Source: a virus
DNA: 56,878 nucleotides
Virus record (IMG/VR): IMGVR_UViG_3300045988_061299
Strand: one strand, 5' to 3'
Position numbers and translations under genes: made by a program. Positions within the stretch are counted from its first letter, which is position 1, and each line of letters opens with the position of its first letter. Below are positions 5,669 to 45,207 of the stretch, one piece after another. The notes under the pieces are model-generated. The model was not told where the DNA came from and ran no database searches. It was given only the letters and a program-made list of their open reading frames with translations.

Positions 5669-5691
5669 AAACATTGAAAGGAGGATTAAAG

Positions 5692-6057
5692 ATGAACGAA
5701 CGGATAAAAGCATTAAGAAAATTCTTAAACATGACGCAAGAAGAATTTTCTAAGCAAATTGGTTTATCAAGAAATTTTATTGCTCAAGTTGAAATTGGAA
5801 CAAAAGTTCCATCCGACAGAACTATTACTGATATTTGTAGAGAATACAATGTCAATGAAGATTGGCTGCGGACCGGCAATGGTGAGATGTTCAAATCAAG
5901 AACAAGAGAACAAGAGATTGGTGCTTTTGTTAATGAAGTTATGGAATTAAACGATGACAGCTTTGAAAAGAAGCTTGTTAGTGCGTTGGCAAGGCTTGAA
6001 CCTAAAGATTGGGAATGTTTGGAAAGCATCGCAAAGAAATTGCTAGACGAAAAGTAA
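5692..6057 (+). CDS. XRE-family HTH repressor (CI-like)
   Basis: HTH is LNMTQEEFSKQIGLSRNFIAQVEIG. GGAGG lies 7 nt before the ATG at 5692. The gene is divergent from the early operon. Confidence 0.8.
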   Translation: MNERIKALRKFLNMTQEEFSKQIGLSRNFIAQVEIGTKVPSDRTITDICREYNVNEDWLRTGNGEMFKSRTREQEIGAFVNEVMELNDDSFEKKLVSALARLEPKDWECLESIAKKLLDEK

Positions 6058-6908: not shown

Positions 6909-8180
6909 TTAAATAAGTTCGCAATCAGTTACATTGACTGCGGCAAACAGTTCTCCGTTATGTACAAGCACAACTCTGTCTCCGCTTTTCTCTGATACTG
7001 TATATTCGTCAAACCAAGCTTTGATAGGTGTGCCGTCATAATCGGTATTGCCGACAAATCTCACTGTGCTACCCTCTTCAATATCTCCGCTAAATGGAAT
7101 ATCTGTAGGCGTATCATCAGAGTTTGCACCGCCGACAAATTCAAGATTAGCAATATTTACAGCAGCTGTGATTGTTGTGCCGATACCTATAACAATTCTA
7201 TCTCCGTCCTCTTCAATTACATCATATTCATCATAATATGTCGCGAATCTCACGCCATCATAATCAATATTATCAAGAATCTTAACTTTCTTGCCGTCAC
7301 CGCGGCTTACTGTATCTGTGTTAATATCGCTGTCATATACGCACTTAACAAGGCTGATGTTGTCTTTATCAATAGCAGCGGTAATTACTCCGTCAATTCC
7401 GATAACAACTCTTCTGCCACTAACTGATAAAACACTGTACTCATCATAGTAAGTATTGAACGGCTCGCCGTTATCATACTGAACGGCGTTGAGTACCTTA
7501 ACTGTGTCGCCCTTATGGAACTTAGTGTCTGGCACTGGCTGATAATCTGGCACTGTTGCTTCTTCGACAACATGGTCTGTGCAATAATCAGTGTAGCAGT
7601 AATTCTGGTCTACTGTTTGTCCGTTAATCTGATTGCTTCTAATGAAGTTGTCTGAACCGCCAAACTGCCATAAATCATAGTCAGTGCCGATATTAGGCTC
7701 TGTATCTGAATATCTTGCCACCCATATGGCATATCCTGCTTCTTTTACTCTGCTTATATCTACATAGTTATTGATGTGGCTCTCCGACGAATATAAGCCT
7801 ACTTTAGTAAATCCTGCTTCTTTCATTTCCCCCATGAATGCCATAACTATATCTGTAAGGTCATTGCCGGTAAGCATTGTTCCCTCTACGTCATAAAAAA
7901 TAGGATAGCAAAAAGACTTACCCACAAGAATAGAAGCACAGTATCTAGCTTCATTTCTTGCTTCATCTTCACTGAATGCGTTGCCGTAGAAGTACGCTCC
8001 CTTGTGCATATCTGCGTCTGACAGCTTGTTATAGCTGTTTTCAAATTCCCTGTCGGTGTAAAGTCCGTCGTCAGCACCACCGCACTTGATGATTGCGTAC
8101 TCAACACCCTCTTCATCTCTTGCTCTTGCAAAGTCAAAATCCCCCTGCCATCTTGATGTGTCAATACCGAATTTTTTCAT
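6909..8180 (-). CDS. endolysin: GH25 muramidase domain plus three C-terminal repeats of about 70 aa (SH3b-like cell-wall binding)
   Basis: GIDTSRWQGDFDF is a GH25 signature. The three repeats follow the pattern G.TV.......YDG......YDEY.V.......RVVIG......AAV. Confidence 0.85.
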   Translation of the reverse strand: MKKFGIDTSRWQGDFDFARARDEEGVEYAIIKCGGADDGLYTDREFENSYNKLSDADMHKGAYFYGNAFSEDEARNEARYCASILVGKSFCYPIFYDVEGTMLTGNDLTDIVMAFMGEMKEAGFTKVGLYSSESHINNYVDISRVKEAGYAIWVARYSDTEPNIGTDYDLWQFGGSDNFIRSNQINGQTVDQNYCYTDYCTDHVVEEATVPDYQPVPDTKFHKGDTVKVLNAVQYDNGEPFNTYYDEYSVLSVSGRRVVIGIDGVITAAIDKDNISLVKCVYDSDINTDTVSRGDGKKVKILDNIDYDGVRFATYYDEYDVIEEDGDRIVIGIGTTITAAVNIANLEFVGGANSDDTPTDIPFSGDIEEGSTVRFVGNTDYDGTPIKAWFDEYTVSEKSGDRVVLVHNGELFAAVNVTDCELI

Positions 8181-22128: not shown

Positions 22129-23001
22129 TTACGCCGCTTCTGCCTCTGTGATTGTGGACTTGATAATTCCGTCAAGTCTTTCAGCAAAAAGTACAATGCC
22201 GGAAACCACTGTGTCAGAAGCTGTCATATTGCTGTAGTCCGGTGTTTCGTGAATACCAATAAGACCTGTCTGGTCTGATGTAAAATCAAAAGCTTCTCCG
22301 AGATCTGCACCATTAACAGGAATGTAATACAGTACGATATTGTCTTTTGCTGTTGCGTAGATGGTTCCCTTTGGTACTTTGCTGTCAAAAATAACAGTTC
22401 CAAGACCGAGGAAGTTCTCTACATAAGTCATACCGAATGCTGTCTGTAATGTAATCTGTGCTTTAGCAAGATAATCAGCTACATCAAGTGGATTCATAAA
22501 ATACACAGCTTCGATTGAATCGTCTTCAAACTTGACCTGTAACTGTCCCCAAGCCTGTGCAAGTGCTGCCTGAAAGCCTACGCCTGTTGCTGTTCCTGTG
22601 CCTGTTGCAAGGAATGTGAAAAAGTCGCCTCTAATGCCTTTCTGAACATCAAGTAACATTCTGTCAGTTGTCATCTGTACCGCCTGGTCATAGCCTCCAC
22701 TGATAATCGCCTCTGCTGATGTGGCTTTTCTCCACTTCTTCAAAGTGATTTCCTTGTAGTTTACTGCAGCTGTCTGATACTTAGAGAGTGGGATTGTTTC
22801 GCCCTCTGCGACTTCTCCGTTTTCAAGTGTTCCTGTAGCCTTGTAGGACTTTAATGTGTAGCCCGCCTGCTTTGGAATCTTTCTTGTTACTCCAAGTGCC
22901 TCAATTAACTTCTTGATGTTCTCACTAAAAATGTTTACAAACTCAACCTCTCTTGCTCTTACAAGGTCAGCTTTCTTAATTAAATTTTCTTCTGCTGCCA
23001 T
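22129..23001 (-). CDS. major capsid protein
   Basis: 290 aa, located after the scaffold gene, with composition typical of a capsid protein. Confidence 0.75.
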   Translation of the reverse strand: MAAEENLIKKADLVRAREVEFVNIFSENIKKLIEALGVTRKIPKQAGYTLKSYKATGTLENGEVAEGETIPLSKYQTAAVNYKEITLKKWRKATSAEAIISGGYDQAVQMTTDRMLLDVQKGIRGDFFTFLATGTGTATGVGFQAALAQAWGQLQVKFEDDSIEAVYFMNPLDVADYLAKAQITLQTAFGMTYVENFLGLGTVIFDSKVPKGTIYATAKDNIVLYYIPVNGADLGEAFDFTSDQTGLIGIHETPDYSNMTASDTVVSGIVLFAERLDGIIKSTITEAEAA

Positions 23002-26050: not shown

Positions 26051-27775
26051 CTATATTGGGCTTGACATAATGACTGTTTTTTTAACCCGATTTCCTTTTG
26101 TCATCCTCAATGCAAAGTTTGAAAAAACATCTGGAACATCATCAAGCTGTTTCTTCCCTGATACTGAATACTGTTTTAGCAACGACATCATTATTCCGTA
26201 TGGCTCATTAGGTTTGTAAAGTGATGAATCTTTAAAAATAATGTGTTGCAAAATCCAGTTAGAACATTGAAAAATTCTTGCTTCTTTGTTTGTTTCAGTC
26301 GGCGTGTCTGTAATATTACATATCCAACCTACACTCTCTACACGCTTATTAACCTCCATTGCAACCCTGTCGCCACCGGCATTACGCTCAAATTCGCACT
26401 CTTGCACTTTGTTATTTACAAGTACACCTGCGGCATTTCTGTATTGTTCTTCATAATCTGCTGTGTTATCACATACGCAATCAACGCAGTAATAATCTTC
26501 TCCGTGTTTCTGCAATACAGGTAGTACAAAATAATCCGTACCTTTTCCCTTTGTATCACATTGAGCTGTGATAATCTCCGGCTCTCCGTGTGGTAAATTG
26601 AGATATCTTCGGATTTTATCATCTGGAAACAGCAATCCCTCACGCTCTATAGGCTCCTGTTTGTATAAACACCTATAAGATATTTCGTCCATTAAAAGCT
26701 GTTGGTCTGCAAAAAATTCTTTTGTAAATCCACTATACTCATAATCAAAGTTGCTCTCACCTGTAACTGGATTAACATCCGGCACAGCGATAGTTTTAAC
26801 TCTTTTATTTCCTGCGTACATATTTTGTATTCTGCCAATAACATCGTGTACGCTCCAGCGTGTAGCAATATGTATTTCTTTGCAGTTATGTCCGTCCGTA
26901 TCTTGAATTTTTCTTTGTCTGGCATCTACCGCATATTTATCCCATAGCTTATCAAGTACCATAGGATTAAGTGCTTCTTCAATGCCGCCTATCATATCGT
27001 CTACAAGCAAAAATTTGCTTGCACGAACTTTACCAGCATTTTTACTGCCAACAGATGTACATTGTATGCTTGGAAATGGTTTGTATTTACCTACATTGAA
27101 CTGTTCAAGTTTTGCATTTGTGCTTGTGACTGTAAGATTAGGGAAAATTTCATTCCACGCATATTCGTCAGAATTTGTAACAATGTCATACACGCCATCG
27201 TAGTACATTCGTGTAATGTCGCCCGAATGAGAGTAAAAAAGACAAAAGTCATTAGGAAACCAGCCAGCAACTAAAGCATTGAACATTTTTTCAATGGTTG
27301 TTTTTCCTGCTCCTGGTATTAATGACACACACAATATATCGTATTTATCATCAATCATACCTTGCAATGCTTCTGTTAGCCCCATTTTTATAAATTGTTT
27401 GCGGCGTGGCATATAAAATCGCTCTTTAGGCTCTCTTTTCTTTTCAAGATACCTAAAACCGCTGTCAACAACTTTGTTTTGTGCTTCAATCAGCAAAATA
27501 TCGTAAAACCAATTAATCAGCTCATATTCCGTTTTATTTGCAAACGCATACTTCTCTAAATCCCATATCGTTCCACCTGTTTTAGCCGTGCAGAAGCCCT
27601 CTATAAGCTCTTTTGCCCTCTTAGTAAGCTGTAGCCCATACTCAATGTCTTTTTCGCCATTTATGGCTACACTGCAAGCCTCTACATAGGCATTAATTAC
27701 TTGCTCATCTATTCCGTTTTTTTCTATGTAATTTTCATATCCATCAACTGTGGAAATAAGGCTCTGACTAGCCAT
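26051..27775 (-). CDS. terL: terminase large subunit
   Basis: Walker A-like IPGAGKTT. Called from size and position before the portal gene. Confidence 0.8.
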   Translation of the reverse strand: MASQSLISTVDGYENYIEKNGIDEQVINAYVEACSVAINGEKDIEYGLQLTKRAKELIEGFCTAKTGGTIWDLEKYAFANKTEYELINWFYDILLIEAQNKVVDSGFRYLEKKREPKERFYMPRRKQFIKMGLTEALQGMIDDKYDILCVSLIPGAGKTTIEKMFNALVAGWFPNDFCLFYSHSGDITRMYYDGVYDIVTNSDEYAWNEIFPNLTVTSTNAKLEQFNVGKYKPFPSIQCTSVGSKNAGKVRASKFLLVDDMIGGIEEALNPMVLDKLWDKYAVDARQRKIQDTDGHNCKEIHIATRWSVHDVIGRIQNMYAGNKRVKTIAVPDVNPVTGESNFDYEYSGFTKEFFADQQLLMDEISYRCLYKQEPIEREGLLFPDDKIRRYLNLPHGEPEIITAQCDTKGKGTDYFVLPVLQKHGEDYYCVDCVCDNTADYEEQYRNAAGVLVNNKVQECEFERNAGGDRVAMEVNKRVESVGWICNITDTPTETNKEARIFQCSNWILQHIIFKDSSLYKPNEPYGIMMSLLKQYSVSGKKQLDDVPDVFSNFALRMTKGNRVKKTVIMSSPI

Positions 27776-27878
27776 AAAGAAAAGCACCTCCGCCTTTTAG
27801 CAGAAGTGCCTTATAGACCTCTGCCTATAATTGTTTTAGGGTAGCGACTACAATCAATCTGTAGCCGGTAAAATTTTA

Positions 27879-37970: not shown

Positions 37971-38990
37971 TTAAATCCGCTTGAGCTTCTTCATTTTTTC
38001 CTCATATTTCCTTTTACTTTCTTTGTTTTTATCAGGATTATTTTTTATCCACCTTTCTCTTGATTTTCTCACTTGTTCCTTATGCTCTTCTCTCCATTTT
38101 CTATCTTTTTCTATCCTTTTAATTTTTCTTTCTTCTAATTCTTCTGGCGTCATATCTTTAACTTTTTTCTGCATGGGTTTAGTTAAAGCTGTCTTTATAT
38201 CCATTCCTCTTTTTATTCTGCACCTCACTGAATTCATACATTTTATATTATATTCTTCACACCATTCTGTAAGAGTTTTTACAACACCATCAATTTCATA
38301 ATAAGAATTATTAGTCTTATTATTACTTTGAATTTTCATAGATACAAAACGACAATTACTAGGTTCGTAATCACCATTAACATCTATGCGGTCGATTGTA
38401 CACTGTCCTCTTTTTGCGGTTTCATCGTAGCCATTTTTGTAAGCCCAATCAGCAAAATTTTTCAACCCGTTTTCGCCAAGCCATTCATCGCACATTTTTA
38501 TCCCTCTTGCTCCGTAAGTAGAGTAAGAAATATCCTTAATGTTATAACATCTATTATAAATATCTCTGTATATAGTGTAGATTTTTTCTTTTGACATCCC
38601 ATGTTTATAGCTCTTTCTATTTTCTCCTGTTGGGTTTTTACTGCAACCACAAGAATGTACAAGAGGATTATTAAATTCAGAAAGTGTCATTTCTTTTATT
38701 TTCCCACATTGGCACTTGACAACGACTTTGCCGCCTCTGTTATATTGTTTTGCACCTATTATTTCTAATTTATCCTTCTTTCTTCCTATTTCTTTTTTAA
38801 GTTCATCTAAATAAGCACACCCACAAGATTTAATTTTTCCACTTTTTCTAAGAAGATTAGCTTTGTATACAGGGATTATATTTCCGCAATCACATCTGCA
38901 CGCCCATCTCTTCATATTATTTTTCTTATCGTAAACTCCTACCACAGTTAATCTGCCAAAGCATTTTCCAATAAAATCTGTATCGCCCAT
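37971..38990 (-). CDS. Cys-rich DNA-binding-like protein with a K/E-rich tail
   Basis: Two W.C.C.CG...SCGC-type motifs, then YSTYGARGIKMCDEWL...TIDRIDVNGDYEPSNCRFV. I recognise the family as phage-associated but cannot name its function. Confidence 0.5.
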   Translation of the reverse strand: MGDTDFIGKCFGRLTVVGVYDKKNNMKRWACRCDCGNIIPVYKANLLRKSGKIKSCGCAYLDELKKEIGRKKDKLEIIGAKQYNRGGKVVVKCQCGKIKEMTLSEFNNPLVHSCGCSKNPTGENRKSYKHGMSKEKIYTIYRDIYNRCYNIKDISYSTYGARGIKMCDEWLGENGLKNFADWAYKNGYDETAKRGQCTIDRIDVNGDYEPSNCRFVSMKIQSNNKTNNSYYEIDGVVKTLTEWCEEYNIKCMNSVRCRIKRGMDIKTALTKPMQKKVKDMTPEELEERKIKRIEKDRKWREEHKEQVRKSRERWIKNNPDKNKESKRKYEEKMKKLKRI

Positions 38991-39104
38991 TATTTTCTCC
39001 TTACATTAATTAATCTTATATAATATTATATCATTTTAAAAAATTGACCACAAGCAAAAAATGATATAAAATTAAATAATATTAAACAAGAAAGGATTTT
39101 TATT

Positions 39105-39245
39105 ATGGCTACAGATACATTAAAAAATAGAATTAGAATATCTACAACTCTTAAACCTGAAACTAATGATTTACTGAAAAAGTACTCTCAATCAACTCAA
39201 ATACCAATAAGCAAGATAATAGAAAATGCAATAATAAAATATATT
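39105..39245 (+). CDS. ribbon-helix-helix (CopG/Arc-like) protein, 46 aa
   Basis: Hand translation gives MATDTLKNRIRISTTLKPETNDLLKKYSQSTQIPISKIIENAIIKY. Confidence 0.55.
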
Positions 39246-39274
39246 AGTGAGGGCAAATGATGCCCTCACTATTT
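39244..39274 (+). terminator. terminator between convergent genes
   Basis: AGTGAGGGCA-aatga-TGCCCTCACT followed by ATTTT. Confidence 0.7.
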
Positions 39275-39285
39275 TGTGACTTAAC

Positions 39286-39936
39286 TTACAGTTTAGAAAC
39301 AAGTGTACTAAGTTTGGTTCGCATAAGATTACGTTCCTCCGCTGTCATATCGCCGATAAGCTGTGTAATATCGCCGCCAAGCTCCTTGATATAGCCGTCA
39401 AGTGCTTTCATCTTATGCTCCTTATCCTCTGGCGTATTAGCTTTGTGCATTTCTTTTGTTTCTGTGTACATTCTCTTTGCCCTGTCATAGCCACTTTCAG
39501 CGGTATGTGTACTTGTAGGCTCTGTATAGTACATTCTGCCATATTCCCTATCCATATCACGCTCTGGGTACATATGCATATAAGGCGGTTCTTCGTATCC
39601 TCTTCTGCCTACATAAGTGCCCTTGCCTTTAGGGGCATATCTGCCGGTAGTCTTGTATCTGTATTCATCATAGTATCTTCTGCCACTCTCTTCGCCATAT
39701 TCATCTTTTAAGGCTCTAAGTAGCTCCTTGTTGTATTCTTCTTCCTCTTCATCAGCTTTCTTCATAGACTTAACGATAACAGCCTTGTACTCTGCTTCAC
39801 ATAAGTCCTTAATCATATCGACAGCTTCTCCCATTTCCTCTGTATTGACATTCTCAACGCCCTTATCAAGCTCGCCTAAGGCTTTCTCTGTAAGACATTC
39901 AATCATTTTGTGGATTCTTTCAATGTGCATACTCAC
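39286..39936 (-). CDS. cargo protein 5: helical, highly charged, with a Tyr/Arg/Gly/Pro-rich centre
   Basis: 216-aa ORF. The centre reads GRRYYDEYRYKTTGRYAPKGKGTYVGRRGYEEPPYMHMYPERD. Confidence 0.55.
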   Translation of the reverse strand: MSMHIERIHKMIECLTEKALGELDKGVENVNTEEMGEAVDMIKDLCEAEYKAVIVKSMKKADEEEEEYNKELLRALKDEYGEESGRRYYDEYRYKTTGRYAPKGKGTYVGRRGYEEPPYMHMYPERDMDREYGRMYYTEPTSTHTAESGYDRAKRMYTETKEMHKANTPEDKEHKMKALDGYIKELGGDITQLIGDMTAEERNLMRTKLSTLVSKL

Positions 39937-39942
39937 ACCCCC

Positions 39943-40362
39943 TTACGCTTCACGGACAGCAATTAAGTTGCTGTTCTGAACCTGTATAGCCTGTGTAGAT
40001 GTATTCTGCACTGCTACTGTACTGCAACAGCCACAAGGTACATCGACGTAGGCTTGTGCTGATACATTAAATAAGTTTTCAACAGCGGCTGGTGTTACAA
40101 TCATTCGTGTTGACTGTAAAGGTTCTCCGTCCACTGCGATAGCAAGTGAAATGGCTTCCACTGTGCCGCCTGTAGGTATCTGAATATTGCCGCTATAGGA
40201 TACCAAAAATCTCGCTCTACACTGATTTGTAATACCTCTTAACTTGATAATTCCGCTTCCTTGTCTGTGTACGATACACTTACTACCGCAAACTGCTGTT
40301 TCTGTAAATGCAACATCTTCTCCGGCAGCAACTGTTTGTAATGCGATTCCTGTAATTTCCAT
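39943..40362 (-). CDS. cargo protein 4: C1q/TNF-like (BclA C-terminal domain / BxpB-like) beta-sandwich protein
   Basis: GAGAGGT precedes the ATG at 40362. The pattern VAFTET...GIIKL...RFLVSYSGNI...ISLAIAVDGEPL...VQNSNL resembles exosporium TNF-fold proteins. Confidence 0.45.
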   Translation of the reverse strand: MEITGIALQTVAAGEDVAFTETAVCGSKCIVHRQGSGIIKLRGITNQCRARFLVSYSGNIQIPTGGTVEAISLAIAVDGEPLQSTRMIVTPAAVENLFNVSAQAYVDVPCGCCSTVAVQNTSTQAIQVQNSNLIAVREA

Positions 40363-40537
40363 TGTCTTTACCTCTCTTTCTAAAAAATAAGGGCAAACCA
40401 TACAAGTCTGCCCCATGCTCCCGACATCAATGTCGGTACCAACGTAATACTGCTTAGCAGACATAATCTTTCGAGTTTTCTTTCGAGTGGAAGTCAAAAG
40501 CACCCAATCCGATTAAGATACTTGATTATTCAGTTGT

Positions 40538-41323
40538 TTAGCAGCCACAACCTGTATTACATCCGCATCCATAAGCATATCCGTAAAGGTTGCTTGCCGG
40601 GAAGGATGGTACTGGCGTAGGTCTTACAGCGTCAATAATCTGATTTGTCTGTGCTGCCATTGTGGTAGTCAGAAGTGCATTCTGTCTATCCTGTGAAGCA
40701 GCTCTGCGTAAATCATTATTCTCTGCCTGTAATGTTGCAATCTTGTCATTAGTCAGGAAATCAAGAATAGCTCTCGTTCCTGCCTGCTGGCTGTCAATAA
40801 TATCTCTTGCATTATTATTCATAGTGTTCTGTAAAGCACAGGTGTTGGTTGCCATATTGTAGTTTACACCCTGAATAGCTTCTCTTGTCTCACAGCAACA
40901 GTTTGCAAGCTGTGACTGTAAAGCGTTTGCATTCTGCATATTAGCGACTGTATCAGCGTTAATAGCCTGCTGGATGCCGTAGCCTGTCTGCATGATATTA
41001 GTGTTAATACCATTAAAGCCTGTGAGCATACTGTTATTCATAGCGTAGAATCCATCACAAAGTCCGTTGGAAATGCCATCTAACTTACTGATAACTGCCG
41101 AATTGTCGAAGCCTCTCTGAATATCAGCCTGTGTAGCCGCTGTTGCAACATAGCCACCGCCATTATTGCCGCCAAAACCGCCAAATCCACCATTACCCCA
41201 TCCAAAGAGTAAAGCAAATACAACGATTATCCAAAGCCAGCCGCCATCAGCCCAGCCGCCATTATTGCTGTTGCCATCAATGTTTGCTACAAGTGGCACG
41301 CTGGCACAATTTGAATTAAACAT
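40538..41323 (-). CDS. cargo protein 3: Gly-rich TM segment, Asn/Gln/Ala-rich region with CCCE, and a C-terminal GCGCNTGCGC tail
   Basis: GGAGGT precedes the ATG at 41323. The N-terminus NNGGWADGGWLWIIVVFALLFGWGNGGFGGFGGNNGGG is YjcZ-like. Confidence 0.55.
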   Translation of the reverse strand: MFNSNCASVPLVANIDGNSNNGGWADGGWLWIIVVFALLFGWGNGGFGGFGGNNGGGYVATAATQADIQRGFDNSAVISKLDGISNGLCDGFYAMNNSMLTGFNGINTNIMQTGYGIQQAINADTVANMQNANALQSQLANCCCETREAIQGVNYNMATNTCALQNTMNNNARDIIDSQQAGTRAILDFLTNDKIATLQAENNDLRRAASQDRQNALLTTTMAAQTNQIIDAVRPTPVPSFPASNLYGYAYGCGCNTGCGC

Positions 41324-41393
41324 ATTAGTTACCTCCATTAATTTATTCATAAAGATGTCACCCAGGTAATTTGCAAAGACATCTAATATGCTA

Positions 41394-41624
41394 TTAATTA
41401 TTAAATCTGCTTTTTATCTGATTAAATACATCATCTGCATTTAATCCTTTTTCTTTACATAAATTTCTAGCCATCTGTTCGATACCTTGCGTATTGCCTT
41501 GCTGTGCCATTTGCATTGTGTTTTTCATCATTGGGTTGCTCATAAGCTGATTGTTTCCCATTATCTGCTGTATAAATTGTTGAGGACCACCTCTCATCAT
41601 TTGAAAAAGGTTAATTGGGTTCAT
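41394..41624 (-). CDS. cargo protein 2: small Met/Gln/Asn-rich protein
   Basis: 76-aa ORF with a 4-nt overlap with the upstream gene. Confidence 0.5.
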   Translation of the reverse strand: MNPINLFQMMRGGPQQFIQQIMGNNQLMSNPMMKNTMQMAQQGNTQGIEQMARNLCKEKGLNADDVFNQIKSRFNN

Positions 41625-42142
41625 TCTTCATCACCGCCCTTGCTTTGAGTTCTCGAAGATTTTCTTTGTGTTCCTAAAGATTTATCAAATCTATCTTCTA
41701 ACTGCCCTATTTTCTCTGATAACTCTTCAAACTTATTTAAGAATAGCTGTGTGCTTTCGTCTGACAGGGTAAATTTAGCGTTTTCTGCATTAGCCATAGA
41801 ATTTACTGTCTGATTATCTTTAGGGGCTGCATAAGGCTTATACACAATTGTCTTAATTGTTCCGTCGGCATTCCAACCCTTAACATATATCTCCGACATA
41901 TCCTGCTTCGGGAAAAATGCCATTGAGCCATCCATAGGGACCTCGTTAGCGTTGATATTTTCAACTGCCTGCACTATTCTTCCATTAATGCCTGCTATCT
42001 GCTGTGGCATAGGTTGTTGGATTTGTGGTTGTATCTGTTCCTGCGACTGAAATCTCTGTATATTTGCCACAGGGTTGTATTGATACGCTCCATATTGTGG
42101 TAAATAATTATTCATTATAGGTGTCTGATAAGGATTGTTCAT
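41621..42142 (-). CDS. cargo protein 1: Gln/Pro/Asn/Tyr-rich N-terminus, beta-rich core, C-terminal coiled coil
   Basis: 173-aa ORF beginning MNNPYQTPIMNNYLPQYGAYQYNP.... Confidence 0.55.
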   Translation of the reverse strand: MNNPYQTPIMNNYLPQYGAYQYNPVANIQRFQSQEQIQPQIQQPMPQQIAGINGRIVQAVENINANEVPMDGSMAFFPKQDMSEIYVKGWNADGTIKTIVYKPYAAPKDNQTVNSMANAENAKFTLSDESTQLFLNKFEELSEKIGQLEDRFDKSLGTQRKSSRTQSKGGDEE

Positions 42143-42260
42143 TGTCCGCCTCCTCTAAAACCTCTTCAATTGCGTGGATAACAAGAGATAATGTTACTAA
42201 GTCAAGTTTCTGCAATTCTTCTTTACCCAAAATCTTTTCTCTAACTTCATCAGAAAACAT
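42108..42260 (-). CDS. possible small acidic ORF (50 aa)
   Basis: MFSDEVREKILGKEELQKLDLVTLSLVIHAIEEVLEEADNEQSLSDTYNE with GAGGT upstream. It overlaps the next gene by 35 nt. Confidence 0.3.
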   Translation of the reverse strand: MFSDEVREKILGKEELQKLDLVTLSLVIHAIEEVLEEADNEQSLSDTYNE

Positions 42261-42295
42261 TCGCATTACCTCTCTTTCTGATTATATTTTGGCAT

Positions 42296-42328
42296 AAAAA
42301 AAGAGAAGAACATTATCAAGTTCTTCTC
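42296..42328 (-). terminator. rho-independent terminator downstream of int and attP
   Basis: Minus sense reads GAGAAGAAC-(8)-GTTCTTCTC followed by TTTTTTT. Confidence 0.75.
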
Positions 42329-42373
42329 ATATTTACATCACGCAATATCTCTTTTATTTAATTGTCTTTATCT

Positions 42374-42648
42374 GTACACCATCAAAATTTCCGTACACCA
42401 TTTTTACACCATTTTGCCATTGAAATACATAGAAATACGTGGATTTTTGTGGCGTAAGTGTTTTACTTTTGCAATTTAGAAAACCGCACTAAACACCGCA
42501 TTTATCGCGGTTTTAATCAAGATTATACGGAGTTATCTGATAAACATAATAAGTTTCTAAAATATTATACATTTTTAACTCTCCAATCCGCATAAACGCT
42601 ACATTTCTTAATTCTGAATGGTGTATATTTACACCACATTTACACCAC
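42374..42648. other. putative attP region with six TACACCA-type arm repeats
   Basis: GTACACCAT at 42374 and 42393. TACACCAT at 42405. An inverted copy at 42618..42625. TACACCAC at 42630 and 42641. An 8-bp inverted repeat AAAACCGC...GCGGTTTT lies between them. Confidence 0.5.
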
Positions 42649-43827
42649 ATATTTCACAAAATCAAGAACCTTATTGTCGTTCTTAACAATTCTTTCAATG
42701 TCATCACTTGCTTTCTGTGGCATAACATGTGTGTATAAATCCATTGTCATTTGTAATGTTGCATGACCTAAATATGATTGAACAACTTTCGGTTGAACAC
42801 CTGCTTCAAAACACCTTGTCGCAAATGTATGTCTCAAGGTATGTCCGCTGAAATCTTCCATTTCTTCATCAAAAGAACGGACAAGATTTATTGTGTCTAT
42901 AACAGATTCAATTGCAGCACTATATAAAACCGAATTAAGTGGCGTGTTAAATTTTGTCGTGAATAAATAATTATTCTGTTCCTTAGGTCGCTTGTTTGCA
43001 ATTACATATTTCTGCCTTATCTGCCTTTCAAGATATTTCCGGCACGAACTGTTTATAGGTACTTTTCTAATACCTTTTTCCGTTTTAGGCTCTTCTAAAT
43101 GAAATTCCTTATGCTCATCATCAAGATATTTCTGGTACACAAGGGTTTTTGATACGTTTATCAATCCATTTTCAAAATCAATATCATTTTCCGTTAAAGC
43201 AAAAAGTTCTCCCGGTCGCAACCCGGTATTAACCGCAACATTAAACAAATTATCATAGAACGTGCCAGCACAGCATTCAAAAAATGTTTCCTGCTCTTCA
43301 GCTGACAATGCTCTAGCAAAAACTTCTTTATCCGCTCTTATTTTAACACCTTTCGCCGGATTCTTAGACATCAGTTCATCTTCCATTGCTCTTGAGAACA
43401 TGTCAGATGAAATAACTTTGATTTTGCTCTGCCTTTCATATCCATAGCCTTTATCTTCGGCAATGTCAATTAAATTTTGAATATCTGACTTAATAAGAGA
43501 GTTTATATTGCGGTTTCCTAAAAAAGGTGATATATTTTTAGTGTATATGTGAGTGTATTCCCTAAGCGTATTAGGGCGTACACTTCTCTTTTTGTATACC
43601 TCTACCCAGCGGTCAAACCAATCATCCAGCTTGATATTATCTCTTATGCTTTTAAATGACTGATTTTCGGCTATTGCAATTGCAAGTTTCTTTCTTAATT
43701 CTGACAATTTATCGTCATAAATACTTTTTCTCTGGCCAAATCTGTCAACATACCTGCCACAATATTTACCATTCTTTCTTTGACTTATTCCATTACCTAA
43801 TTCTTTTCCTTTTAAATCTTTTCCCAT
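42640..43827 (-). CDS. int: tyrosine integrase (Int-Tn-like N-terminal arm-binding domain)
   Basis: GGAAAGGAG precedes the ATG at 43827. Motifs are GKYCGRYVDRFGQRKSIY, GHTLRHTFATRCFEAG and LGHATLQMTMDLYTHV. Confidence 0.85.
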   Translation of the reverse strand: MGKDLKGKELGNGISQRKNGKYCGRYVDRFGQRKSIYDDKLSELRKKLAIAIAENQSFKSIRDNIKLDDWFDRWVEVYKKRSVRPNTLREYTHIYTKNISPFLGNRNINSLIKSDIQNLIDIAEDKGYGYERQSKIKVISSDMFSRAMEDELMSKNPAKGVKIRADKEVFARALSAEEQETFFECCAGTFYDNLFNVAVNTGLRPGELFALTENDIDFENGLINVSKTLVYQKYLDDEHKEFHLEEPKTEKGIRKVPINSSCRKYLERQIRQKYVIANKRPKEQNNYLFTTKFNTPLNSVLYSAAIESVIDTINLVRSFDEEMEDFSGHTLRHTFATRCFEAGVQPKVVQSYLGHATLQMTMDLYTHVMPQKASDDIERIVKNDNKVLDFVKYVV

Positions 43828-44327: not shown

Positions 44328-44594
44328 TTAAAATTTTATTCCTGTTTCCTTTTCTAACTGTTCAATTAAATCTTTTGCATTTATATATCCATCATTGTAT
44401 GCTTCTATAATCTCATGTATCTCGTCTACAAGTTTTTCCAATCTTTTGCTACCAAATCCAAATTTGTCATGCAAAACCCAACAAAAAATTATTAAAGCTG
44501 ATGTAAAACTTTCTTTTTGTTGCCTGCTTTTAATTCTATTTTCTTGAACTCTCATCATTTGCTGTTGAAATCTTCGTTGTTCTGGCTTGCTCAT
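44328..44594 (-). CDS. hypothetical protein
   Basis: 88-aa ORF. Confidence 0.4.
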   Translation of the reverse strand: MSKPEQRRFQQQMMRVQENRIKSRQQKESFTSALIIFCWVLHDKFGFGSKRLEKLVDEIHEIIEAYNDGYINAKDLIEQLEKETGIKF

Positions 44595-45207
44595 TTTTTA
44601 TCCTCGCTTCCTTGCTTTTCTTTGCATAAACTAAAGACTTAATGTAATGCTCTTTGCATAATTTTGAATGATTATAAACCGGCTCACCGCAAAACCAGCA
44701 TTTGCCATTCATTACCCATTCGCGTTTAATATCAAGTTTGTAATTTTTCTTGGCATCTCTTATTCTTTTTTTGATTTTCTGCTTATTGCGGCACTTGGCA
44801 CATGTCTTAAAATTCTTGTCACTTTTAACCTTGCCACAATATACGCACAAACCATTAGCAGCTCTTTTTTCACGTATTTTTTTCTGCTCGATTCTATCTT
44901 TTTCTTTAAACTTTTCGGGATTCAAATTATAACGTGTCATTCTTTTTGCGTATCTCTTGGCTGAGCATTCAATGCATTCTTTTTCGTCGCCAAATAAATT
45001 GTTTTTACGGCATATAGGGCATATCCCATTTTCTTTATACCAACTAATAAGTTCTCGCCTATCTTTGTTTGCTCTGTCGCGGCATTTGCTACATTTAACC
45101 CCAGCAATATCAAGTGGTTTTCCACAATTTATGCATAATCCAGCTTCTTTTCGCCTGTAATACATTCTCATTTGCGGACTAATTGGCGTTGCTTCCACTA
45201 AAATCAA
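44536..45207 (-). CDS. multi-zinc-ribbon, Lys/Arg-rich protein
   Basis: At least five CxxC pairs. The start is TTG at 45207 or an internal Met. Confidence 0.45.
   Translation of the reverse strand: MILVEATPISPQMRMYYRRKEAGLCINCGKPLDIAGVKCSKCRDRANKDRRELISWYKENGICPICRKNNLFGDEKECIECSAKRYAKRMTRYNLNPEKFKEKDRIEQKKIREKRAANGLCVYCGKVKSDKNFKTCAKCRNKQKIKKRIRDAKKNYKLDIKREWVMNGKCWFCGEPVYNHSKLCKEHYIKSLVYAKKSKEARIKNEQARTTKISTANDESSRK

Follow-up and report, generated by a model that had tools for sequence, protein, structure and literature searches.

A conserved accessory cassette of gut phages with a BclA_C-fold protein and a terminator-based leader

What is the role of a compact block of genes beside the attachment site (attP) of a phage when its products resemble hardly any known protein? 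This question is raised by the virus record IMGVR_UViG_3300045988_061299 of IMG/VR, of which a stretch of 56,878 nt was analyzed as a whole (hereafter the window, to which all coordinates refer). The original prediction, made from the sequence of the window, had described five genes on the minus strand as lysogenic-conversion cargo whose products might remodel the spore surface. We found that the five genes exist as described and belong to a larger module borne by thousands of gut phages. In kind, this module belongs with the accessory, moron-like cassettes of phages; it combines a protein of the BclA_C fold with a terminator-based leader.

A module with a fixed gene order

All five of the proposed open reading frames (ORFs) are present on the minus strand where they had been placed. 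However, a sixth small gene, g0, had been missed, and in relatives the block extends beyond g5 to two further genes, c9 and c15. In the window, six closely packed ORFs, g0-g5, occupy the minus strand from 42260 to 39286, and the members of the module are as follows (RBS, ribosome-binding site):

42260-42108, minus strand: g0, 50 aa, acidic and helical, with an RBS of its own; overlaps the start of g1 and is kept in relatives
42142-41621, minus strand: g1, 173 aa (phrog_21718)
41624-41394, minus strand: g2, 76 aa, Met/Gln/Asn-rich
41350/41323-40538, minus strand: g3, 270/261 aa (phrog_16490)
40362-39943, minus strand: g4, 139 aa (phrog_20016)
39936/39930-39286, minus strand: g5, 216/214 aa, charged, with helical ends and a Tyr/Arg/Gly-rich center; tightly coupled to g4
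37910-37590, minus strand: c9, 106 aa, with HExxH and weak SprT-like/M78 matches; conserved downstream module member in this clade
37590-37444, minus strand: c15, 48 aa; conserved downstream module member in this clade

The second ATG of g3 (41323) has the better RBS and gives a product of 261 aa. Identical 261-, 139-, 214-, 173- and 76-aa products are present in public collections, and the start codons of the first three of them are supported because exactly the same products have been recorded elsewhere. A protein identical to g2 has been named from a metagenome-assembled genome (MAG) of Lachnospira eligens. The unusual compositions previously described for g1, g2, g3 and g5 were all found in the sequences; g1, for example, has a Q/N/Y/P-rich N-terminus, a small conserved core of beta type (WVxGE...YxKSxDxxG in relatives) and a helical C-terminus. 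Among the module products, only g3 has a hydrophobic N-terminal segment. Searches of g0-g5 against Pfam, NCBIfam, PADLOC and PDB sequences gave no usable match, and there was no informative family match for g0, g1, g2 or g5. All module families are listed as unknown in PHROGs and none as structural, and no description, name or Rfam entry was found for any part of the module in literature and family resources.

The genes proved to be syntenic across many genomes, including those of highly diverged phages, when the ORFs of 80 genome loci and four phage records were clustered. The order g1, g3, g4, g5 was observed in 60 of the 65 loci with enough flanking sequence. The slot of g2 contained either g2 or a related Q/M-rich family (c6, phrog_22984) in 59 loci, and the slot before g1 contained either g0 or c4 (126 aa, phrog_3754), a family with invariant Cys, His and Asp residues for which family searches gave no match. 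When profiles of g1, g3, g4 and c4 were compared with PDB, only coiled-coil or chance matches were obtained. The slot after g5 was occupied by c9 and c15, or by a 108-aa family (c7), in 38 loci. In addition, a stand-alone helix-turn-helix (HTH) protein of the sigma-70 region 4/GerE-like type (66-90 aa) is encoded upstream of the cassette in 43 of the 84 loci, and the integrase gene, where present, lies between the HTH gene and g0. This protein is a possible regulator of the cassette.

The location of the cassette in the phage genome is variable. It adjoins the integrase gene (int) in the window and in Dulem virus 39, lies between the lysis genes and int in Dulem virus 33, and follows the lysis genes in Butyrivibrio virus Ceridwen, a phage of Butyrivibrio fibrisolvens that carries the module with g1, g3, g4 and g5 and is considered virulent by its authors (PMC7372960). 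In Dulem virus 35 and about 10 genome loci it is found between an SPP1-gp7/MuF-type minor capsid gene and the scaffold/major capsid genes, and in some phages it is placed among early genes. Thus, a role as lysogenic-conversion cargo fits the position in the window phage, but in other phages the cassette lies after lysis genes, in the head cluster or among early genes, and its presence in virulent phages argues against a function in lysogeny alone. What can be concluded with confidence is that the cassette forms a self-contained, mobile unit that is strongly conserved and has regulatory elements dedicated to it.

Properties and distribution of g4 and g3

The monomer model of g4 generated with AlphaFold2 (AF2) from a 116-sequence alignment had a predicted local distance difference test (pLDDT) score of 89.4 and a predicted template modeling (pTM) score of 0.82. 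In a Foldseek search of PDB with this model, the top 18 matches were F-BclA, ExsFA, BxpB and BclA (E 2e-8 to 1e-5, TM 0.70-0.77); the best was the tip (C-terminal) domain of F-BclA (E 2e-8, TM 0.75), and BxpB reached a TM of 0.77. The next matches were EDA/TNF-family ligands, and weaker ones included phage fiber and spike knobs. In BFVD, g4 matched stand-alone proteins of 135-142 aa from uncultured phages, some of which were labeled 'BclA protein'. The Pfam family BclA_C (PF18573) was matched by 4 of 77 g4 relatives (best E 5e-07), whereas the window protein itself had no Pfam match at E<=1. The model, the structural matches and these four relatives agree with the TNF/C1q-like fold of BclA/BxpB type that had been suggested from the sequence pattern, and g4 can confidently be modeled as a stand-alone TNF-like jelly roll of the BclA-C/ExsFA/BxpB type. 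The fold begins at residue 2 of 139 aa, and the protein has neither collagen-like GXX repeats nor an N-terminal exosporium-targeting segment. Two cysteines, C112-C113 (GCC motif), are invariant and C48 is nearly so. In a library at 50% identity, 905 g4 representatives matched, and the best 150 of them were all 83-196 aa long, the domain accounting for most of their length. The relatives of g4 form more than 5,500 clusters at 90% identity, and at least 8,000 with a profile, none of which is named or has a Pfam domain.

The g3 protein carries GGWADGGW...GWGNGGFGGFGG, CCCE and a GCGCNTGCGC tail. Its layout consists of a Gly/aromatic-rich hydrophobic segment, approximately 160 aa of long helices, an invariant CCC, and PxPAY followed by a Cys-rich tail. 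In the AF2 model, the secondary structure comprises a hydrophobic helix (30-40), three further helices (77-103, 120-140 and 158-233) and a disordered Cys-rich tail. C142-144 are invariant, and ENxxLxxAASQxAQN, PxPAY and the GCGC tail are conserved. At least 8,000 clusters at 90% identity belong to this family, none with a name or a Pfam domain. The hydrophobic segment had been called 'YjcZ-like', a resemblance that turned out to be compositional only: comparison of g3 with the YjcZ family models yielded nothing in NCBIfam or Pfam at E<=1 or E<=0.1. Against PDB, the g3 profile reached HA2 and ATP synthase b at E ~0.1-0.3, which are coiled-coil or chance matches. Similarly, the only match of the module proteins in PADLOC 2.0, that of g3 to the ZorA tail (E 0.0044, 13.8 bits), is coiled-coil noise.

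The g3 family extends beyond the phages of Clostridia. Using tblastn, we identified relatives covering up to 92% of the protein in crAss-like phages, in an isolated phage of Bacteroides uniformis, in C. perfringens phages and in viruses assigned to Methanomassiliicoccales, and a hidden Markov model of g3 scored them at 1e-18 to 5e-42. Carriers include the crAss-like phage cr116_1 (L180), the Bacteroides phage C3_41T2LP (L183) and the Methanomassiliicoccales virus vir215 (L182). Some annotations of the crAss-like relatives read 'spike protein/glycoprotein' and others 'viral fiber', and in cr116_1 the g3-type cassette lies between a terS-like gene and a capsid gene. The C. perfringens phage CPD1 has clear homologs of g1, g2, g3 and c7, with a different Cys-rich protein in the slot of g4. 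In phages of Bacteroidota, the g3-like gene is followed by genes for four products: one is beta-rich and contains Cys, one combines a beta domain with a coiled coil, one is an Arg/Asp/Tyr-rich mini-protein and one is a small HExxH ('PolyVal') peptidase. Judging from sequence, this partner set is analogous in composition, although homology to g4, g1 and g5 is not demonstrable. With hhalign, the proteins that occupy the g4 slot in crAss-like and C. perfringens phages showed no significant similarity to the g4 profile, and Pfam gave nothing for the g4-slot and partner proteins save a DUF7841 match in one Bacteroides-phage neighbor. It should be noted that the g3 homolog of vir215 adjoins a reverse transcriptase gene, a context like that of a diversity-generating retroelement, and that some cassette contigs (L047, L025, L033, L044, L058 and others) come from MAGs labeled Methanobrevibacter, Alistipes, Alloprevotella, Akkermansia and similar.

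Regulatory elements, integration site and neighboring genes

The candidate regulatory elements in and around the module are as follows:

42303-42328, minus strand: terminator-like hairpin with a T run; lies between the module and int/attP, or host metA in the lysogen
42281-42301, minus strand: promoter-like motif TTTTTTATGCCAAAATATAAT, TRTG-n-CAAAAT, an extended -10 without a -35; single copy in the window
40363-40537, minus strand: g3-g4 leader, 175 nt, with P1 and its inserted loop, AUG linker, P2, an extra hairpin, terminator hairpin, U run and RBS
40414-40390, minus strand: terminator-like hairpin of the leader
39245-39271, both strands: bidirectional terminator-like hairpin, common to g5 and the convergent ribbon-helix-helix (RHH) gene

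Ahead of its first gene, the cassette has a hairpin, variable in sequence, and then T7-ATGC(C/G)AAAATATAA, which reads TRTG-n-(C/G)AAAAT, that is, an extended -10 with no -35. The motif was found once per locus in 18 genome loci, each time just before the cassette. An exact 20-mer scan of 2.9 million viral contigs (IMG/VR) revealed 95 matching stretches, and in 66 of the 70 with at least 700 nt downstream, g0/g1...g5 follow at once. These module-linked stretches represent both g0/g2-type and c6-type cassettes and at least eight different upstream hairpins. In viral contigs, the motif is almost exclusive to the module. Moreover, hairpin and motif are kept whether the module adjoins int, follows lysis genes or sits within a head-gene cluster. 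Judged by its sequence, the motif looks like a housekeeping-type extended -10 and not like a sporulation-sigma promoter; inspection by eye upstream of g0 and g4 revealed no convincing sigma-E/sigma-K pattern. As for the hairpins, a scan detected five terminator-like sites in 5.2 kb compared with 2.8 +/- 1.9 in shuffles, a count that alone is weak evidence, and real support comes from conservation in relatives, many of which have a counterpart of the 42303-42328 hairpin with a different sequence. In this sense the proposed insulation is supported for the terminator-like hairpins.

The 175-nt gap between g3 and g4 contains ACTCGAAAG twice, inside the loop insertion of P1, and folds more stably than shuffles (z = -3.0). 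Among 51 g3-g4 gaps of 60-400 nt, 31 have a terminator-like hairpin, compared with 10.7% of random segments of equal length. In most loci, 23-41 nt separate the end of the terminator stem from the ATG of g4, too few for a promoter in between, and the gap between g4 and g5 is only ~12 nt. Single-sequence folds of diverged leaders agree on the same succession: P1, AAUG linker, P2, AUA(A/C)UGU linker, P3 (the terminator), U run and RBS. With RNAalifold on plain MAFFT alignments, the terminator helix alone was recovered, and P1 and P2 required a covariance model seeded with six hand-checked sequences. In 1.27 Mb, this model gave 34 matches at E<=0.01, each of them on the coding strand and immediately before g4. 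In the alignment fitted to the model, 97% of cells pair, a fraction that falls to 76% in shuffles and to 37-68% when partners are slid. Both sides have changed in 20 of 21 leader pairs, the changes are compensatory in 10 of 11 terminator pairs, and the covariation score is 0.68 as against 0.27 in shuffles. Rfam 15 gave no match at E<=1 for 39000-42700 of the window, and for a canonical copy of the leader in L077 the best score was 22 bits against a gathering score of 50.

On this sequence evidence, the leader is a conserved, covarying RNA of three hairpins that ends in a terminator, which supports the structured leader of the original prediction. The window copy is a divergent, insertion-bearing variant of this RNA, a reading that relies on the P1-AUG-P2-AUUAC-P3 layout shared with short relatives: close relatives with 124-nt leaders have the plain layout, to which the window leader adds the P1 loop insertion with the ACTCGAAAG repeat and the hairpin CCGACAUUGAUGUCGG. 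In L130, L105 and L101, whose leaders are 199-230 nt long, the P1 loop is enlarged by runs of short AACTCGA/TTTAATC-like units, of which the ACTCGAAAG duplication in the window is a small version. Only in the clade of the window is the AUG between P1 and P2 (40464-40363) in frame with g4, and database calls of 173 aa and 184-186 aa for g4 arise because this AUG runs in frame into it. A conserved leader peptide was considered and rejected, since the mini-ORFs (3-10 codons in other clades) vary in length and sequence between clades. No consistent alternative antiterminator pairing was observed on brief inspection of the leader, and leaky termination, a protein- or ligand-controlled attenuator and put-like antitermination are candidates for its mechanism.

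The integration site could be mapped by comparing contigs, and comprises the following features:

42513-42554: attP core, identical to the 3' end of host metA (HTS); circular and integrated forms differ upstream and match downstream
42513-42650: 45-aa ORF, a phage-borne copy of the 3' end of host metA
42371-42412, minus strand (three copies), and 42625-42647 (two more): (A)TGGTGTA direct repeats flanking the attP core

The exact g1 protein was found on two types of contigs, one of ~57 kb (Xis-Int-45 aa-g0-g1) and the other of 87-266 kb, in which host genes precede g0-g1. One of the ~57-kb contigs is the same as the window over the 2,600 nt compared. The host genes on the integrated contigs are those for a cellulase, rpsT, gpr, spoIIP, ligA and metA/HTS, with metA directly upstream of g0. 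The circular and integrated forms are identical from TTATTATGTTTATCAGATAACTCCGTATAATCTTGATTAA on (window ~42554-42513), which is the 3' end of metA, and the order at the junction is host metA, 42-nt core and g0 in the integrated form and Int, core and g0 in the circular form. Since the two forms converge at this point, metA is the integration target: the phage inserts at the end of the gene and brings along, as the 45-aa ORF, the piece that replaces it. Counting inward from attL, the block comes first in the integrated prophage, as expected from the previous claim that it adjoins attP at a prophage end. The gene immediately preceding the module in the lysogen is metA, which has the same orientation and is separated from it by two hairpins. 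The five (A)TGGTGTA copies are probably arm-type integrase sites by analogy, because Int and Xis are of the Tn916 type. In other clades, TGTCGC or ATGTC repeats are found in the same position.

The remainder of the window is a siphovirus-type genome with genes for an antirepressor, a single-stranded DNA-binding protein and replication proteins among others. Neighbors of the module and landmarks elsewhere in the window are listed below:

39105-39260, plus strand: Arc/RHH gene, half of an inserted pair (37971-39260) that breaks the conserved g5-c9 junction
38990-37971, minus strand: HNH endonuclease, 339 aa (phrog_374), half of the inserted pair between g5 and c9
43899-42640, minus strand: Tn916-type integrase, upstream of the block (family match)
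44312-43914, minus strand: HTH-Xis fusion, with a sigma-70 region 4/GerE-like HTH (residues ~10-65) and a Tn916-type excisionase domain (residues 69-129)
5674-6057: CI-like repressor
6909-8180: endolysin
22129-23001: major head protein
26051-27787: large terminase

Just upstream of the HTH-Xis gene, a 223-aa ORF (44536-45207) has repeated CxxC pairs (zinc-ribbon repeats) and a faint DZR mark, without a PHROG match. The genes g5 and c9 are adjacent in close relatives and are split by the RHH/HNH pair in the window phage, and in many relatives the cassette is broken up or bordered by homing-type endonucleases and other cargo, as at an insertion hot spot. For example, an ORF for a NUMOD1-type homing endonuclease splits g3 in L005 (1701-2564). 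Between g3 and g4, a C5 DNA methylase is encoded in L013 (8819-9931) and a radical-SAM-like ORF is present in L015 (8973-9932). Ceridwen has an ORF that clusters with the window HNH endonuclease between g4 and g5 (L001:8494-9288), CPD1 has an ORF apparently of this kind between g2 and g3 (L181:4122-4745), and C3_41T2LP has an annotated I-HmuI endonuclease immediately ahead of its g3-like gene (L183:2770-3390).

What the module may build

The explanation that we favor, with a probability of roughly 40%, is that the cassette is an autonomously transcribed accessory module that builds a membrane-anchored protein assembly cross-linkable through cysteines. Host RNA polymerase would transcribe the cassette independently, and the leader would pass only part of the transcripts, so that g0-g3 would be made in excess over g4-g5. 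Because g3 precedes the conserved terminator-leader and g4-g5 follow it, one major and several minor structural subunits might be expected. The parts would meet in the cytoplasm, since no product except g3 has a signal-peptide-like hydrophobic N-terminus. The Gly-rich hydrophobic segment of g3 would enter the membrane and an oligomeric coiled-coil stalk would form, with a putative g4 trimer as an ExsFA/BxpB-like cap or socket and with g1, g2 and g5 (Q/N-, Met- and Tyr/Arg-rich, respectively) as matrix or chaperones. Finally, the invariant cysteines (CCC and tail in g3, GCC in g4) would lock the assembly via disulfides or metal. The outcome would be a coat-like, cross-linkable assembly on the host membrane of the lysogen or infected cell, for which surface/envelope remodeling or protection are candidate pay-offs. 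The argument for a self-assembling, cross-linkable structure is based on the coiled coil and the invariant cysteines, on partners of low complexity, on putative small peptidases and on the lack of signal peptides.

Several observations weigh against this explanation. The cassette is also present in phages regarded as virulent and beside head genes, which would equally fit a role in the virion. The AF2 monomer model of g3 is poor (pLDDT 46), and its membrane insertion and topology are guesses, because of this model and because the hydrophobic segment lacks flanking positive charges. The promoter assignment rests on a reading of the consensus. With regard to the leader, the pair counts come from an alignment fitted to the covariance model, and the window copy scores just 15 bits (40374-40467) against a model derived from another, distant clade.

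A different product, an accessory part of the virion, therefore has to be weighed, and we consider it rather unlikely. In this case g3, g4 and their partners would be made late and reside on or in the particle, either as a capsid/tail decoration with a TNF-like knob or packaged and ejected with the DNA, and the cysteines would harden the particle outside the anoxic gut. Such knobs are common in phage fibers, and the weaker Foldseek matches of g4 include fiber/spike knobs. The location amid head genes in at least 10 loci (MuF-type minor capsid gene on one side, scaffold/major capsid genes on the other), the cassette of cr116_1 between terS-like and capsid genes, the carriage by virulent phages, the products without signal peptides, and homing endonucleases that cluster at the cassette as they do at conserved phage genes all point in the same direction. 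However, the window cassette lies ~12 kb from the packaging genes and among early-type genes, PHROGs classes none of the module families as structural, and a promoter-like element and terminators of its own, unusual for virion genes of a temperate phage, are retained by the cassette even within head clusters. It is these same elements, together with the position beside int/attP, that recall many cargoes for superinfection exclusion or defense. A membrane-level exclusion function, by which g3 and its partners, produced from the prophage or early in infection, would block other phages or act as an abortive-infection effector, would agree with a main product of membrane type and with the small putative peptidases of the extended module (HExxH in c9; Cys-His-Asp in c4 of relatives). 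We regard it as unlikely, since PADLOC gives only the weak coiled-coil match to the ZorA tail (E 0.004), the order and motifs of the module are far more conserved and spread over a far wider range of host phyla than those of known exclusion genes, and low-complexity Q/N/Y-rich partners are atypical of defense systems.

The idea of spore-surface or exosporium remodeling, in which the proteins, assembling in the mother cell of a sporulating Lachnospiraceae host, would attach to the forespore and alter the spore surface, has real arguments behind it: exosporium proteins make up all of the best structural matches of g4, its partners are coat-like in composition (Cys-rich, Tyr/Arg-rich, Gln-rich), and the lack of signal peptides is what one would expect of proteins assembled in the mother cell. 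The GerE/sigma-region-4-like mini-regulator upstream in 43 of 84 loci, gpr and spoIIP near the prophage on the host contig and the position at a prophage end also speak in its favor. Nevertheless, the idea was weakened to the point that we now hold it distinctly improbable. A virulent phage of Butyrivibrio fibrisolvens carries the g1/g3/g4/g5 module, g3-like modules with analogous partners are present in Bacteroides/crAss-like phages and a g3 homolog in Methanomassiliicoccales viruses, none of whose hosts sporulates, the promoter-like motif resembles the housekeeping type with no sigma-E/sigma-K type recognizable by inspection, and g4 has no collagen-like stalk or N-terminal exosporium-targeting extension. 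The module is probably not spore-specific. The broadest proposal, to which we give the smallest chance, takes it as a coat-like assembly kit shared by gut viruses across phyla, which would combine a membrane-inserting coiled-coil major subunit, a TNF-fold cap, a prion-like and Tyr/Arg-rich matrix and small peptidases. Its cysteines would cross-link on leaving the anoxic gut, and its subunit ratios would be set by a cis-acting RNA of a class not described before (attenuator or put-like antiterminator). If true, the kit would be a new kind of phage-built cellular or particle armor common to Clostridia phages, crAss-like phages and archaeal viruses.

Whatever the product, the g3 and g4 families are among the larger blocks of gut-phage 'dark matter' with a fixed architecture, and the g3-g4 leader, with its strong covariation, is a candidate for a new structured regulatory RNA. 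Experimental handles are available in the cultivable carrier Butyrivibrio virus Ceridwen, in an isolated Bacteroides phage with a g3-type variant and in Lachnospira lysogens whose att site has been mapped. Should the module change the cell surface or envelope in abundant Clostridia of the gut, or affect how stable their phages are, it would bear on phage-host dynamics and gut transmission.

The module can be compared with several known systems. The g4 model superposes on the BclA C-terminal domain and ExsFA (BxpB) of the Bacillus cereus group (PDB 1wck, 7r1m, 8d02 and 9h38; TM ~0.7-0.77, E 2e-8 to 4e-6), which are of similar size (~135-150 aa), and ExsFA/BxpB, which binds a fiber protein by the N-terminal peptide of the latter, is a stand-alone protein like g4. 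However, identity is only 9-14%, and g4 differs from BclA in having no collagen-like region and no N-terminal targeting segment. In contrast with exosporium proteins, g4 is encoded by phages rather than in an exosporium locus, always follows a coiled-coil protein of membrane type and has the invariant GCC. Cys-rich cross-linked proteins of spore layers (ExsY/CotY, CdeC/CdeM) and YjcZ of B. subtilis share Cys motifs and a Gly-rich hydrophobic segment with g3, and the Tyr-/Gln-rich partners recall coat proteins, whereas g3 has no family match, is mostly coiled coil and belongs to a family found in phages of non-sporulating hosts. The leader resembles terminator-based cis-regulatory leaders, a general class to which attenuators, riboswitch expression platforms and the HK022 put-type antitermination RNAs belong, in its two conserved hairpins and conserved single-stranded linkers before a terminator and the RBS of the next gene; it differs in having no Rfam match, and the window copy has two insertions. 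Finally, the cassette as a whole is similar to prophage morons or lysogenic-conversion cassettes in its flanking terminator-like hairpins, promoter-like element of its own, position at the attL end and varied insertion points in unrelated phages. A moron is reportedly a promoter-gene-terminator unit at a prophage end, in the sense attributed to Juhala et al. in 2000. Compared with such units, the module has six to eight genes in a fixed order, occurs in thousands of phages including virulent ones, and contains an internal structured candidate attenuator.

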